Below, one piece after another: positions 3,870 through 58,741 of a stretch of DNA of 64,000 nt (the first letter of the stretch is position 1; each line of letters opens with the position of its first letter). The notes under the pieces are model-generated. The model worked only from the letters and a program-made list of their open reading frames with translations, was not told where the DNA came from and did no database searches. A program made the position numbers and the translations under genes. The stretch comes from Eremomyces bilateralis CBS 781.70 (taxonomy: Eukaryota). The stretch lies in NCBI GenBank assembly GCA_010015585.1, contig ML975159.1; one strand, 5' to 3'.

Positions 3870-6815
3870 ATGGCTGATCAGCTGAGGTATGACGGCCAGA
3901 CCGTCGTCGTTACGGGCGCCGGTGGTGGCCTCGGAAAGGCGTACGCCACCTTCTTCGGCTCAAGGGGCGCAAATGTCGTCGTGAACGATCTGGGCGGCAC
4001 GTTCAAGGGTGAGGGCGCCTCAAACAAGGTACGTCCGGAGTCTCGTCTCCATCCCGCATTCCAGACAGGATGGGTCGGTACATGACATGTGACGAGTAGC
4101 GGACTGACCGGGTTTTGTGTATAGGCTGCCGATGTCGTTGTTGATGAGATCAAGGCGGCGGGCGGAAAGGCCGTCGCCAACTACGACAGCGTCGAGTTCG
4201 GAGAGAAGATCATCGATACTGCCATTCAGGCGTTCGGCAGGATAGACATCCTGATTAACAACGCTGGTATCTTGCGAGATATCAGCTTTAAGAATATCAA
4301 GGATGAGGATTGGGATCTGATTATGAAGGTCCATGTAACTGGTTCATACAAGGTACGTGGCACTCTAGAGATAGATGGACGAAAAACAGCGGAAACTAAT
4401 GTCCACTCAATAGTGTGCTCATGCCGCGTGGCCCCATTTCAGGAAACAGAAGTATGGCCGCATCATCAACACTGCGTCCGCCGCCGGTCTCTTCGGCAAC
4501 TTCGGACAGACCAACTACTCGGCGGCTAAACTCGCCATGGTCGGTTTCACCGAAACCCTCGCCAAGGAGGGCTTCAAATATAACATCTTTGCCAACGTCA
4601 TCGCCCCGATTGCCGCATCCCGCATGACCGAGACCGTCATGCCCCCAGAGGTCCTCGCGGTCCTCAAACCCAAATGGGTTGTTCCCCTTGTCGCCAACCT
4701 CGTCCACTCCTCCAACAAGACCGAAACTGGCAGCATCTTCGAGGTTGGCGGTGGCCACATGGCCAAGATCCGCTGGGAGCGCTCCAAAGGTTTGCTCCTG
4801 AAGGCCGACCCAGAGACGTACACTCCTGAGTCCATCCTGAAGAAATGGGATCAAGTCAACGATTTCAGCCAGGCCGACCATCCGCAGGGCCCCGCCAACT
4901 TCTTGGAGCTGCTCGAGAATGCGCAGAAGCTGCCGCCGAACGAGCAGGGCCCTAAGGTGGACCTGAAGGGTAAGGTCGTCCTCGTCACCGGAGGTGGTGC
5001 CGGTCTTGGTCGCGCATACTGCTTGCTCTTCGCCAAATATGGCGCTAGGATCGTCGTCAATGACCTCGTCAATCCAGACGATGTCGTCAAGGAGATTCGC
5101 GCTCTGGGCGGCGAGGCTGTCCCCAACAAGGCGAACGTCGAAGACGGCCCCGCGGTCGTCAAGTCCGCCATCGAAGCTTACGGCCGCATTGATGTCCTCA
5201 TCAACAACGCCGGCATCCTGCGCGACAAGGCATTCACAAACATGGACGACAACCTGTGGAACCCGATCATGAACGTGCATCTGCGCGGCACCTACTCTGT
5301 CAGCAAGGCCGCCTGGCCCCACATGCTGAAGCAGAAATACGGCCGCATCATCAACACCACCAGCACGTCCGGCATCTACGGCAACTTCGGGCAGAGCAAC
5401 TACGCCGCCGCGAAGTGCGGTATTCTCGGCTTCTCCCGCGCCCTTGCCCGTGAGGGTGCGAAGTATAACATCTTCGTCAACACCGTCGCCCCTAACGCCG
5501 GCACCCAGCTCACCGCCACCGTCATGCCAGAGGAGATGGTCCAGGCGTTCAAGCCCGACTACGTTGCGCCGATGGTCGCGTTGCTGTGCAGTGACGTGTG
5601 CCCCGAGCCGACCGGCAAGCTGTACGAGATCGGCAGTGGCTGGCAGGCGCAAACCCGCTGGCAGCGGACCGGAGGACACGCGTTCCCTATCGACGTGGAG
5701 CTGACTCCCGAGGAGGTGTTGAAGTTCTGGAAGCCGATCGTCACATTTGACGAACGTGCGGATAACCCGGATGACCAGCAGTCGGGCTTGGCCAGCATCA
5801 TGGCGAACATGTCGAATAAGACGAAGGGTGACAGCGGCGAGAGCGAGACCAATGAGTATCTGGAGGCGCAGAAGAACGCTTTGTCCGCGAAGGCTGAGGG
5901 AACTCCGTTCGATTACGAGCAGAAGGATGTCATCCTCTATAGTAAGTTGCTACATACCCGCCACCCATACCCCATCTCTCCTCTCCCTCAACCGTTTTAT
6001 ATCTGTATACTAATTTCTCACCTCCAGACCTCGGAATCGGCGCCAAGCGCGACGACCTCCCGCTCATCTACGAAAACAACGACAACTTCCAAGTCGTTCC
6101 CACCTTCGGCGTCATTCCCCCTTTCAACGCCGTCTCCCCCTTCAGCATCGGAGACCTCGTCCCCAACTTCTCCCCCATGATGCTCCTCCACGGCGAACAG
6201 TTCCTCGAAATCCGCCAATTCCCCATCCCCACCGAAGCCAACCTCGTCTGTTACCCCAATCTCGTCGAGGTCGTCGATAAGGGCAACGCCGGCGTCGTTG
6301 TCTCTGGCTCCACCACCAAGGACAAGCGCACCGGTAAAGACGTCTTCTACAACGAAAGCACCGTCTTCATCCGCGGCGCCGGTGGCTTCAACGGCGCCAA
6401 GAAGGGCCGCGACCGCGGCCCCGCCACCGCCGCCAACAAGCCCCCCGCCCGCCCCGCTGACAAGGTCGTCACCGAAAAGACCACCGAGGAGCAAGCGGCG
6501 CTCTACCGCCTCTCGGGCGACTACAACCCGCTGCATGTGGACCCCGAGTTTAGCAAAGTCGGCGGGTTCAAGGTGCCGATCCTCCACGGGCTATGCTTCT
6601 TCGGGATCAGCGGGAAGCATATCCTGCAGACGTACGGACCGTTTAAGAACATCAAGGTGCGGTTTGCCGGGTCAGTGTTGCCTGGGCAGACGCTGCGCAC
6701 GGAGATGTGGAAGCAGGGTGGGAAGGTGGTGTTCCAGACGACGGTGGTGGAGACGGGGAAGCTGTGCATTTCGGCGGCGGGAGCAGAGTTGCTTGGGGGA
6801 CAGGGGAAGTTGTAA
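3870..6815 (+). CDS. FOX2: Peroxisomal multifunctional beta-oxidation enzyme (two SDR dehydrogenase domains + MaoC-type hydratase 2), 4 exons
   Basis: Two Rossmann [16 protein letters not shown] motifs, NNAGILRD twice, GNFGQxNY twice, hydratase motif [14 protein letters not shown] and ILHGLC, C-terminal GKL. Introns ~4029-4124, ~4353-4413, ~5942-6028. Confidence 0.97.
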
Positions 6816-51923: not shown

Positions 51924-53100
51924 ATGGACCCTGCAAGCATGCAGGTAACAGGTCAACCCAAACTGCACCAGCAGCAGCAGACGGCTCAATCTTCGCAATC
52001 ACAGAATCCGCGCAAATACGACGGCAAGAACGGCAATCCCAATTACGATACGGACAATGGTGGTCACTATGGTATGAGCTCACTTCGCGAATTTGATATG
52101 CTATTAAGTAGTTCTTTTGCTGACGGTTCATCTCAATAGGTGCAAGTCAACAAGTATGTCACCTGGGAGGTGAAGCGGATAGCTTTGGCTCCGTACCCAA
52201 TGGAATCGTTACTGATTGACTTTGGTTAGATCGCCTTATCTGGGCACGCTCCCAATCCCGAAGTATTTACCGGACACTGGGCAAACGTATCTTATATATT
52301 CTTATATATGCGAAAGAACCAATAGCCTAACCAAATACAGGTCAACCAAGGTCTTACTGGCCACTACCGCGACATCCTCAACACGTACTGGCAACAACAA
52401 GTCACGAAGCTCGAAACCGACGAGCACGACTACAAGATCCACCAGCTCCCCCTCGCGCGCATCAAGAAAGTCATGAAAGCCGACCCGGAAGTCAAGATGA
52501 TCTCCGCTGAAGCGCCCATCCTCTTCGCCAAAGGCTGCGACATCTTCATCACCGAACTCACCATGCGCGCGTGGATCCACGCCGAGGAAAACAAGCGCCG
52601 CACCCTCCAACGCTCCGACATCGCCTCCGCCCTCGCCAAATCCGACATGTTCGACTTCCTCATCGACATCGTCCCCCGCGAGGAGGCCACCTCCCACAAA
52701 CGCTCCCACGCCGCCGCCCAGGCCGCCGCCCAGCACCCCTCCCAGCACGACCAGTCCGCGCACGCCGCCGCCGGCGGGCACCCGAACACGCATCCGAGGC
52801 AGGGCATCGTCCCCCCGCAGGCCGTCGCGCAGCAGACCGGCGTGCATCCGCCGCCGCCGCATCAGATGCCGCCGCCGGAGTACGCGATGCCGGCGCATTT
52901 GCAGCCTGACCAGGAGTATCGGCAAGCACCGGGGATGTATGGAGCGCCGCAGGCAGTGCAGGGTGATCCGGGGGCGCCGTATGGGCAACAGGGGATGGGG
53001 TTTGATCACCAGGTGTATGGGTATGGGATGCCGCCGCAGCAGGTGAGTGGAGATAAGGGTGGGTAGGAAATGGCACCGCTGATGTGATTTGTAGCATTGA
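51924..53100 (+). CDS. HAP5: CCAAT-binding complex subunit HapE/Hap5 (NF-YC), multi-exon; 3' end uncertain
   Basis: [66 protein letters not shown]...[12 protein letters not shown] histone-fold signature. Confidence 0.93.
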
Positions 53101-53735: not shown

Positions 53736-54209
53736 CACGCTCACATGCTGGGAGAAGATGGTGGAAGATGGACGATGGGAGGATCCGTTGGCCCATGGAA
53801 TTGGTTTATATTGAGAGACAGGTGCTGTTATGCCAGATGACACGTTTTCTACACACCATAACACAACGATTAATACTGAACCCGTGAAAGCGAAAGTGAA
53901 GGTAACGTGAACAACGCAGCGAACTCCAAACCCCGTGCCGCACAATCGATAACCCCCCACCCCCACATATTGACTAACGTCTGGATATTAATTTCTTCCT
54001 CAACGTCACCCTTCACAACAAACAACCACTCACTACTTCCTTCGCTCCTAGTAGACCACGATCCATATCCGGTCTAATCCCTCATTCCAATCCCTATAAA
54101 CACCTCTATAGCTTTAAAGCTACCACTAAAGGTACGAGACACCTCGTGAAGCATCCTACCCCGCCAATTGAGCCTGTTCGCTGACTGGAACTCTCTTAGA
54201 ACCGTCATC

Positions 54210-55849
54210 ATGAAAGCTGGTTAGTCGTCGGAATTGAACCCCGTCAGCGATATACAGCAGGAATTAACATCGATTAGTCGTTGCTGGAGCCGCTGGTGGT
54301 ATTGGACAGGTACGTTCGCTCATACACGCCGTCCTGCACTTCACTCACTCACCCCCTCCACCAACGCCACACCCCAACAATGAGATATCCATTGAGGTGT
54401 CCCGAAGCTAACAACTACCTCCTCTAGCCTCTGTCTCTCCTCTGCAAGGCCAGCCCGCTCATTGATGAGCTCGCCCTCTACGATGTCGTGAACACCCCCG
54501 GTGTCGCGACTGATTTGTCGCACATCTCCTCCAGGGCGGTAAGTTGAGCTCTCACCCAACCGAGAACCAACGTGTTGCAAAGCATGGTTATGGAACGGAC
54601 GACGACAGCGAGGACAAATTGGCTAATCTCTTATTCCCTCATGTAGAAAGTCACCGGCTTCCTCCCCGCGGACGACGGCATGAAGAAGGCCTTTACCGGC
54701 GCCGACATTATCATCATCCCCGCCGGCATCCCCCGTACGTCCCCTCTCGCTCTCTCCCCCCTCCAAATGCCCCCAACTAACCTACCCCAGGCAAGCCCGG
54801 CATGACCCGCGACCAACTTTTCAACACCAACGCCGGCATCGTCGCCTCCCTGGTCAAAGGCGTCGCGGAATTCGCCCCCACCGCTTACCTTCTGATCATC
54901 TCCAACCCGGTCAACTCCACCGTGCCCATCGCCGCTGAGGTCCTCAAGAAGGCCGGTGTCTTCAACCCCAAGAAGCTGTTCGGTGTCACCACCCTCGACG
55001 TCGTCCGCGCCGAGACCTTCGTCGCGGGTATCACCGGCGAGGCCGATCCCACCAAGCTGAACATCCCTGTCATCGGGGGGCATTCCGGTGAGACCATCGT
55101 GCCACTGTTCAGCCAGGCGACGCCGAAGTTCGAGATCGCCGGCGATGCGTTGGAGAAGTTGACGTACCGTGAGTCCCCCCCTTCCCTTCCCTCTAACACC
55201 CCAATTCCGTCCCACTAACCCACCATCCCACAGGCGTCCAATTCGGCGGTGACGAAGTCGTCAAGGCCAAGGACGGTGCCGGCTCCGCCACTCTCTCCAT
55301 GGCGTACGCGGGCTTCCGGTTCGCGGAGAAGGTCATCCGCGCCGCGAAGGGCGAGACGGGGATCAAGGAGCCGACGTTCGTGTACCTGGCCGGTGTGGAG
55401 GGCGGGAAGGCGATTGCGGAGGCGACCGGGTGCGAGTACTTCTCCGTGCCGGTCGAGCTTGGGGTGAGTTGATACACCGAACATAAAGTCACCTGGTGCC
55501 ACGGGTGTGGGGCTGGGAGGATGGATGGTTGGCTAACTGTTTTCTAGACCGAGGGCGCGGTGAAGGCGACGAACATCGTCGGTGATGCCAACGAGTATGA
55601 GAAGAAGCTTCTCGAGAAGTGCTATGAGGGCTTGAAGGGCAACATTGCCAAGGGCGTTGAGTTCGTCAACACCCCGCCGAAGTGAGTGTCCCCGGCTTCG
55701 ATTTTCTCCCTCATCATCCTCTCCCATATATTCCCAGCTATCCTTCCAACCCCCCTCCCCTCCCTTTCAACCACCACCGCACCCCCACCATTTCTTAAAA
55801 AAGACAAACCTCTGATCACTGACCGCATTGGTCGGCAGATAGATTGTAA
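54210..55849 (+). CDS. NAD-dependent malate dehydrogenase, cytosolic/peroxisomal type (no mitochondrial presequence), multi-exon with alternative C-terminus
   Basis: Spliced [83 protein letters not shown] and [13 protein letters not shown]. Unspliced stop at 55683-55685, spliced stops at 55840-55842 or 55847-55849. 5'UTR intron ~54132-54199. Confidence 0.95.
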
Positions 55850-56248
55850 ATGCCCTCGCCTTCCATTCGGGGTTTCCATCCGCGCCAACACCCACCTCCG
55901 ATCGGTCGGCCCTAATGATTTCGATGAGACTCAAGGACGCCGCACATTTGAGAATGATGAACGAACCCCTGGAATGAACCGAGGCGCATGAGAGAGATGA
56001 TGGATATTTAACGATTGCAGGGATGATGCGAGAAGGGTTTCACGGAGAGAGACATGATGAAGGTGGTCATACGTACAGCTAGCATCAATTCCTCTCTGCA
56101 ATCATCATTCGTGTCGCATTCCCGCCTGACTTCACCCCTCCCATCCCGTTCACACCGCGCCATATCCGGGTCTCTAGCTACACCACCGCAGCCAGTACTG
56201 TATATCCACATTCCCACACACCATCAATATTGCCCTCGGATCCCATCC

Positions 56249-57263
56249 TCATGCCTTCGCACCCACCGTCCGTATCTGGAACGTCGCAGCGGGTATCTCC
56301 TGCGACTCGGCCGACACGCTCGCCGTGATGCCCATGGCCGCGAGCGCGCCGCGGATGATGCCGCCGGGGAAGACGAGGAACTACGGGGAAGGGTTAGTTG
56401 GATAGTGGGGGATGGGGTGGAGGGGAGGAGGGGAAGGGGACGTACGGCTTGGGTTTGCGCTAGCATTCCGTCGCGGCCTTTTTCCATGCTAATGCGGTGG
56501 ATGGGTTTAAAGTTGTTATCTGTGAGGACGAAGATGCCCTGGATCCTTTGGTTAGATGCCTTCCATTGGACAGGGGAGGTAGAAGAAGGGGCTTGTCGGC
56601 GGCGATGGCACTCACGCGGTGGTTGGTCTTTAGGTTGTCGATCTGCTTGCGGAATATGATGCTCCAGACGTCTTTGCAGATGAACTTGATGATGTCCAAT
56701 GGCTCTGTAACCCGAGGTCGGTCGCGTGAGAATCTGCGAAGGAGAGAGAGTTAGTACTATTCCAGCACCAGCCGTCAACGGCTGGTGTTCTGCGCTCCAA
56801 ATCAAATCCCTCCTTCCACAACATCCCCACTCCTCGCTCATCAACTAAGAAAATCACCCACTCACCTCTCCGCAACCCCCAACCCCACCCGATACCCCAA
56901 ACCCTCCAACCTCAAATACGCCGCCTCCCTCAACTCCTCCTCATCCACCCCCCCAACCGCCCCGCCAATCCCCCCCACCCCTCCCCCTGTCAACTCACCC
57001 TTCTCATCCCGTCCCCCCAACTTCCCCCCCGCCCCTCCGCCAATCCCCGTCCCCGCCGTCGTGCTCCCCGTGACGCTCGCGCTCGCCCGCCGCGCGCTCT
57101 TGGATGATGGGTGGTATTGGGCTTCTTGGAGGGCGAGCTCGGCGGAGATGCGGTAGGCCATGGGGACGAGCTCGATGAGGAGGAGGTCGAGGCAGGAGGT
57201 GTTGAGGTAGGCGGCATAGGGGTCGGTGGAGTTGTAGGGGGGGGTGGGGGCTTCGAAGGACAT
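56249..57263 (-). CDS. TRS33: TRAPP complex subunit Trs33 (TRAPPC6), multi-exon
   Basis: [66 protein letters not shown] and [15 protein letters not shown]. Confidence 0.92.
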
Positions 57264-58741
57264 TTTGGAGTGGGGTGGGTGGATGGAGGGTTGATTGGTT
57301 TGTTGAGGCGGTCGGGAGGGTGGGAGGGTCTATTTGCGAGAGAATGGGTATTGTGGTTAAGGTGGGCTCCTTGGGTATTGGGGTCAGTTCGTCGTGGTGC
57401 TCAGAGATGGAGCTCTAGTGTAGGTCGGTTCGGGGCTGCGGGAGCTACTTTAAGGAACAATTCATACGAGGTCGATCGGTACGAGTTGGAGGAGGTCGAA
57501 AAGGACTTGTTGGCGTGCAATTACTCGGAATATGAGCGCAAGGTAGGTTATCGGCATATCTGAACTGTACAGAATTCCGTTGTCGATTTCAGTTGCGACG
57601 TTAAGACCTGACCGCTGCAATATTCCACGCTGTATCTGGACGCGTTTCCGGCCTATTACCTAGTCAAAAGTACGCGTATTTTATTACGGTACTAACTTCC
57701 AATGGATATGATAATACCTTAGTCAGCACAGTCCATGAAGGGTTGGGATTTCAACCTCTCAGTCTACACGTAACTTCATCCTTAACTTCATCCTCGCCTC
57801 ATTCCCGTGGCGACAGGCTTATTTCATACCCCACAGATACACAGGAATTGAGGGGGTCTGGAAACGTTAATGTTTGTGGGAGTGACCATAAAGGAGGCAA
57901 TCCAAGGAATGGATATGGGCAATAGGAACAGACCTGACCTTATTCCGTACTATTCCCTGGATTATTCTAGTCCTCTAATGCACGATCCTAGGATTATATT
58001 ACAGGCTGAGGCCTCCTCACGATGACCACGAATGAGCCGATGGTTAAATAGATCATCATTTGAGGGTTCATCGATTATTCCAACGCGGCAGGTTCAAAGT
58101 CGCATATCTCAAATCCCCATATCCAGAACAAACGGGCAGGTGGATCAGGATATATTTCTGGCTACTCTGATATTTCGTGTTGCAATATCTCCAACATTCA
58201 TTTTGAGGTCACTACTAGGTACTATCTTCGGAAAGGTCTCTTTTTTTTCAACTGTCCTTGTTTCATTATCATCATACTTAAGTCCCAGCACAAAACCGAT
58301 ATGAATCTCTGAGCAGACCAAAAGAGTGTATTACTAAAGAACCATCATCTGAGTCAACGTCCCAAGTTTGTCGCGCAAATAGAACTAAAAAGATGCGTCT
58401 TAGCTCTCCCAACCTGCTACTAATCAAGTCATCACACTGTTTTACGCTATTTATCTGAACTTAGCAAAGAACTCGGTTTCAAGACCTCCCTCCACAATCG
58501 ATTACAGTTTCTCCCTTTTAGAAGATTTGTCTTCGTTCTGATTTTAACAATGCTCCGCTACGCTACGTAATCATACATTTCGTTAATCAAGGCTGCATCT
58601 GGGTATCTCGGAGAGACAATTTCTGAAAAATGGCTGCTCGCAAGGTTTTGGCAAACAGAAGTATTCCATGTCGACCGGCGACGAATCCAACTTTTGCTAC
58701 GCTCATCCCAACTAACCGTCTTGCTTTGCTCGCATCTGAGC

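Follow-up and report, generated by a model that had tools for sequence, protein, structure and literature searches.

Work by Freitag in 2012 is said to have found cryptic forms of the peroxisomal signal PTS1 on fungal GAPDH and PGK. Cryptic PTS1s on animal MDH1 and LDHB were described by Stiebler 2014 (PMC4207609). The systems closest to the locus presented here are the malate dehydrogenase (MDH) genes of two other fungi. In Yarrowia lipolytica, the last intron of MDH2 (YALI0E14190g) has acceptors 4 nt apart, and localization experiments placed the form spliced at the distal acceptor in peroxisomes (Kabran et al. 2012, PMC3372373). That paper calls the 4-nt acceptor choice unique to Yarrowia and reports no clear peroxisomal label for wild-type tagged MDH2 (sections 3.3 and 3.4). 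In Aspergillus fumigatus, as described by Hurtig et al. 2020 (PMC7491326), the last MDH intron is either retained or removed at one of two 3′ sites separated by 4 nt. Splicing at the proximal one yields the same protein as retention, with no change beyond the wobble base and the stop codon, and use of the distal UAG adds one residue, which creates a putative PTS1. The same source puts the age of the arrangement at more than 590 million years. Saccharomyces cerevisiae supplies the same two compartments from two unspliced genes, MDH2 and MDH3, instead of one spliced gene (PMC7491326). Its Mdh3 is reported to recycle peroxisomal NADH by a malate/oxaloacetate shuttle (PMC3798809, PMC9549241).

A cytosolic-type MDH gene of the Dothideomycete Eremomyces bilateralis is located in the window, which is the whole 64,000-nt stretch of DNA that was analysed. 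In the gene, a 5′ UTR intron is followed by seven coding exons and a last intron (Table 1). The encoded protein scores 410.8 bits against TIGR01772 (NAD-malate dehydrogenase, eukaryotic/gammaproteobacterial type; cut-off 273.05), and the motifs GAAGGIG, IPRKPGMTR, SNPVN, DVVRA and GGHSG are intact. Its PPK form is identical to the E. bilateralis malate dehydrogenase record P0001 (328 aa), which stands alone in its cluster. A search of the protein for a presequence, a PTS2-like motif or an N-terminal extension found none; the last is precluded because an in-frame TAA precedes the ATG in the spliced leader. The gene very probably supplies both a cytosolic and a peroxisomal NAD-malate dehydrogenase through tandem acceptors in the last intron, a conserved ascomycete MDH arrangement of the kind described in Yarrowia and A. 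fumigatus.

Table 1 Features of the E. bilateralis MDH gene (positions in the window).
Feature	Position	Strand	Basis
5′ UTR intron, 68 nt	54132..54199	+	joint in run X1; leader sequence
Coding exon 1, ATG at 54210	54210..54219	+	RNA joints and translation
Coding exon 2, GAAGGIG nucleotide-binding loop	54278..54309	+	RNA joints and translation
Coding exon 3	54428..54538	+	RNA joints and translation
Coding exon 4	54647..54734	+	joint in run X2, loose ends in X1; translation
Coding exon 5, RKPGMTR loop continued, SNPVN, DVVRA, GGHSG	54791..55168	+	RNA joints and translation
Coding exon 6	55234..55463	+	RNA joints and translation
Coding exon 7, last two bases open the Lys328 codon	55548..55681	+	RNA joints and translation
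Donor GTGAGT of last intron, GT at 55682-55683	55682..55687	+	sequence, RNA joints
Second candidate branch site TCTGAT	starts 55811	+	sequence
Predicted branch site ACTGAC with its A at 55822, common to both acceptors	55818..55823	+	sequence; branch use inferred
Proximal acceptor CAG, 157-nt intron, product PPK*	55836..55838	+	joint 55681^55839
TAG with two roles, stop in the proximal form and acceptor in the distal one, 161-nt intron	55840..55842	+	joint 55681^55843; orthologues
Coding part of last exon, distal form: Lys wobble base, Leu, TAA, giving C-terminal PKL	55843..55849	+	joint and translation

The GT of the last intron's donor coincides with the third base of the Lys328 codon and the first base of the TGA that stops the unspliced form (55683-55685). 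Downstream of the branch site the order is CAG (ending at 55838), a single A, TAG (ending at 55842) and attgtaa. From the predicted branch A the distance is 16 nt to the proximal AG and 20 nt to the distal one, and both values lie in the 10-20 nt range shown by the seven remaining introns of the gene. Translation over exons fixed by RNA gives PPK* (328 aa) when the intron is retained, PPK* (328 aa) with the proximal acceptor and PPKL* (329 aa) with the distal acceptor. The first-pass annotation had placed the donor at 55682 over the stop, a CTGAC branch site and acceptors at 55838 and 55842, with the same three products; every one of these coordinates and ends agrees with the present analysis. 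Within the 64 kb, both strands included, the tandem motif HAG-R-HAG-R-(Leu/Met)-stop is found a single time, and it appears in 0.06% of 5000 dinucleotide shuffles of the 300 nt downstream, a figure that applies to a motif defined post hoc. The tandem acceptor arrangement is more than a product of chance. Because the motif was defined after the data had been seen, the orthologue comparison described below is the stronger test. The AG dinucleotides at 55737 and 55803 were also considered as acceptors and rejected, since the respective products would end in TIS and SDH, neither has a branch site at the usual distance, and no joint supports them.

Two public runs, X1 and X2, matched the locus and were used as assembled contigs; that they are RNA was assumed rather than taken from their records. 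The X1 contigs contain eight GT..AG joints over 53900-56300, namely both last-intron joints and six others, and X1 therefore holds spliced transcripts of the gene. The joint 55681^55839 (157 nt skipped, PPK*) has a nominal depth of 5948 and the joint 55681^55843 (161 nt skipped, PPKL*) a nominal depth of 5320. For each joint there is a single contig, whose shorter flank has 26 letters. Contig depths do not gauge how abundant an RNA is, and the proximal/distal depth ratio is not a measurement. Thus, both junctions proposed by the first-pass annotation are present in X1. Both splice forms exist and neither is obviously rare in this one run of contigs. The retained form was not seen in X1, where contig depth is 0 over 55682-55762; contigs drop rare forms, and this depth is no evidence that intron retention is absent. 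Run X2, which derives from a relative (share 0.06), contains only the joint between exons 3 and 4 and stops short of the last intron.

Conservation was assessed by querying metagenome loci with a DNA pattern of the last coding exon that included neither donor nor acceptor. At least 114 loci matched. Among the matches listed, one lacks a stop and the remaining 113 group into 75 clusters; for 71 of these the score against this MDH exceeds that against the mitochondrial paralogue, three are too short upstream to score and one (L092) scores slightly lower. Since the clusters are related to one another, they do not represent independent events. A donor over the stop (AAG followed by T) is found in 60 of the 75 clusters listed. 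In 50 of these 60, again among the matches listed, there is an acceptor, 30-330 nt downstream, whose use appends a single Leu and a stop (xKL*), compared with a mean of 2.3 and a maximum of 7 in 200 rounds of shuffling. A tandem acceptor pair 4 nt apart, whose conservation the first-pass annotation had proposed as a check, occurs in 39 of the 60 donor clusters (matches listed; shuffled mean 0.045, maximum 1 in 200 rounds). The distal acceptor is TAG in all 39 tandem clusters listed, and the product is always extended by exactly one Leu and a stop. The residue at position −3 in the 50 listed xKL clusters is A in 21, Q in 15, P in 10, S in 2 and T in 2. By these comparisons, the splice arrangement is conserved in the MDH of filamentous ascomycetes.

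The remaining listed clusters vary. No simple xKL acceptor is found in 10 of the 60 with the donor, and of the 15 that lack AAG-T several resemble spliced transcripts, the rest ending in PPS or PPQ and lacking the arrangement. Eight clusters (L018, L024, L025, L031, L106, L109, L034 and L086) end in PPS* or PPQ* and have no xKL acceptor; in these lineages the switch may be gone, or another route may be used. Variant distal products, identified by script or by eye, occur in four clusters: L021 keeps the tandem sites and its reading continues past KL, L075 gains AKL through a three-residue extension, L060 may end in AML and L045 in PKF. Contigs of relatives include clean spliced forms of both kinds, proximal (L014, L048 and L081) and distal (L040 and L099). 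At the protein level, records P0118 and P0119 share 328 identical positions and end in PPSS and PPSRL, respectively, 10 full-length Phyllosticta MDH members end in PPTK (5), PPTN (2) or PPTKL (3), and Yarrowia records end in PPAN, PPAK or PPAKI. Lys is the terminal residue in 83 of the 110 homologues with an intact C-terminal motif, and the pattern used recognized PTS1-like tripeptide ends in 2 of the first 120 homologues. Thus, among the matches listed, most genomic loci examined encode a PTS1-like end by way of the MDH splice and few protein records show any.

The Eremomyces MDH is identical to Yarrowia Mdh2 at 232 of 328 positions. The two genes (Yarrowia data from PMC3372373) are alike in being orthologues, in belonging to genomes with two MDH genes each, in using both sites comparably and in gaining a PTS1 or PTS1-like end from the distal site. 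Their C-termini differ, being PAN/AKI in Yarrowia and PPK/PKL in Eremomyces, and peroxisomal localization was shown in Yarrowia whereas the evidence here consists of RNA and sequence. The first-pass annotation had named Yarrowia MDH2 as a precedent for alternative acceptors, and the publication bears this out. The resemblance to A. fumigatus is closer still, with tandem sites 4 nt apart, a proximal product equal to the retained protein and a distal UAG that adds one residue. However, the proximal site is CAG in Eremomyces and AAG in A. fumigatus, and the retained mRNA is described as the most abundant form in A. fumigatus (PMC7491326) whereas 55682-55762 is uncovered in the contigs of one Eremomyces run. 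The intron-retained mRNA occurs in A. fumigatus and Lipomyces and has been lost in Yarrowia, and is thus an optional trait. With the other cryptic-PTS1 enzymes the gene shares a central metabolic role, a hidden (here putative) PTS1 and a single-gene origin. Animal MDH1, in contrast, belongs to a different MDH family and relies on stop readthrough. Readthrough was rejected as a PTS1 source in Eremomyces, where none of the three stops, when read through, leads into a short PTS1 tail.

Canonical PTS1s follow the consensus (S/A/C)(K/R/H)(L/M), and the proline at −3 places the distal MDH form outside it. Nonetheless, the description of PKL as PTS1-like by the first-pass annotation is supported by experiments in Histoplasma, also a member of the Pezizomycotina, in which mNeonGreen-PKL goes to peroxisomes and the tripeptide is thus sufficient for import (PMC13343957). 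Two Histoplasma enzymes, the acetate-CoA ligase FatD and urate oxidase, end in PKL and are Pex5-dependent (PMC13343957). PKL is also compatible with the PTS1 search pattern printed in PMC4207609. The two peroxisomal-proteome tables of PMC13343957 that mention 'malate' list malate synthase and not MDH; this proteome scores enrichment over cytosol, and a dual-located enzyme may be missed by it. The E. bilateralis genome contains PEX13. A literature search, with most subscription papers outside its reach, found no fungal test of QKL, no report on the E. bilateralis MDH and none on the localization of a distal MDH form in a filamentous ascomycete. Although the switch is preserved with little change across filamentous ascomycetes, the signal it yields is often non-canonical. 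A speculative possibility is that QKL, PKL and TKL are general fungal PTS1s missed by current predictors or, alternatively, weaker signals favoured to set the amount of peroxisomal MDH, and that the relative amounts of retained, proximal and distal mRNAs are likewise tuned by lineage. The idea of such tuning comes from the near-even split seen here as against the retention-dominated mRNA of A. fumigatus.

In the preferred reading, one gene serving two compartments, the last intron begins within the final Lys codon, and from what is predicted to be a single branch point the spliceosome takes the first AG or else the TAG that follows at a distance of four bases. Choice of the first AG leaves TAG as the stop and the end PPK, as in the unspliced reading, and choice of the second removes TAG and adds one Leu to give PKL; both outcomes are seen at the RNA level. 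By analogy with the Histoplasma and Yarrowia experiments, PKL would act as a non-canonical PTS1 carried into the peroxisome by PEX5. The imported enzyme would, as in yeast, reoxidize NADH by the malate/oxaloacetate shuttle, overlapping other shuttles, and may serve the glyoxylate cycle. Alternatively, the distal form could be made and yet not be imported in this fungus, PKL being a decayed AKL and NAD+ being recycled by, for example, GAPDH/GPD isoforms. The non-canonical tripeptide with its proline would fit this, as would the apparent loss of the signal in some orthologues (L021, which reads past KL, and the PPS/PPQ clusters without the arrangement), the lack of a reported phenotype in Yarrowia (PMC3372373) and the missing MDH in the Histoplasma tables (PMC13343957). 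However, PKL is sufficient for import in Histoplasma, 10 of the 50 xKL clusters listed yield it, so that it is no one-off decay, and the Leu-stop beyond the distal site has been kept although it is 3′ UTR in the other forms. Failure of import is accordingly considered quite improbable.

Acceptors that lie in tandem within a few bases of each other are often leaky, and the use of both AGs might be ordinary splicing noise with no selected function, the more so as contig depths cannot measure levels. This is the least credible of the alternatives, highly improbable in view of a tandem pair in 39 of the 60 donor clusters listed against a shuffled mean of 0.045, a product of exactly one Leu and a stop in every tandem cluster listed, and the published use of such sites in Yarrowia (PMC3372373) and A. 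fumigatus (PMC7491326). Orthologue conservation thus appears to have largely refuted it. A further question is whether the peroxisomal isoform is the NADH shuttle required for FOX2 beta-oxidation, as the first-pass annotation had proposed in deriving both compartments from one gene. The single-gene part of that proposal has gained support, as both acceptors are used and no separate PTS1-bearing MDH was found among the best candidates in the genome. The Mdh3 shuttle of S. cerevisiae (PMC3798809, PMC9549241) and a FOX2-like gene ending in GKL in the same window are compatible with a requirement. However, PMC3372373 reports that Yarrowia strains with the cytosolic form only grow normally on oleate, tributyrin and triolein, that losing either single MDH2 form leaves growth on oleate and other lipids unimpaired, and that the splice ratio on oleate (1.5-2.0) is near that on glucose (1.7-2.2). 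The GAPDH, GPD and MDH shuttles of fungal peroxisomes overlap in function (PMC9549241), and the FOX2-like gene is 49 kb distant, a shared window showing no link. A strict requirement is therefore unlikely, and the claim of need went beyond the evidence because Yarrowia strains with a single form have no oleate defect.

The alternative splice of the E. bilateralis MDH is real, conserved and expressed. Its mechanism is already published, for Yarrowia (PMC3372373) and in nearly identical form for A. fumigatus (PMC7491326), and no new mechanism is described here. The first-pass annotation knew of the Yarrowia case, but the three-form pattern it put forward had already been reported for A. fumigatus. 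What the locus adds is that a mechanism known from Yarrowia, Lipomyces and A. fumigatus now takes in a Dothideomycete, for which there is junction evidence, together with dozens of other fungal loci. It also calls for an annotation correction, as the public record holds the 328-aa PPK form only and the distal form is missing, as had been predicted. The xKL ends across orthologues provide a natural series for testing the rules of fungal PTS1s.

Searching the E. bilateralis genome, which may be incomplete, for other MDH genes yielded among the best candidates a single further MDH that carries an N-terminal extension, ends in KENP and appears to be of the mitochondrial type; none of the candidates scored was a separate MDH bearing a PTS1. 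Two further loci of the LDH/MDH superfamily, L122 and L123 (G000:C20 and C22), resemble L-lactate dehydrogenases and end in RGEL and KYDV, with no PTS1. The FOX2-like multifunctional beta-oxidation gene of the window (~3870-6815, + strand) encodes two SDR domains and a MaoC domain, and its terminal GKL is another non-canonical PTS1.

Directly upstream of MDH is a histone-fold ORF (52326-53066, + strand), whose product resembles the HAP5/NF-YC subunit of the CCAAT-binding factor. A Stemphylium record, P0097 (748 aa), combines PF00808/PF00125 and MDH domains in one protein; it is probably a gene-model fusion and hints at the same gene order. Downstream, a convergent gene (~56200-57330, − strand) presumably encodes the TRAPP subunit Trs33. 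The label of the Chaenotheca MDH record P0112, 'Trafficking protein particle complex subunit 33', suggests that the MDH neighbours are conserved. One X1 contig spans 55843 to beyond 56300, and the 3′ ends of MDH and the convergent gene may overlap.
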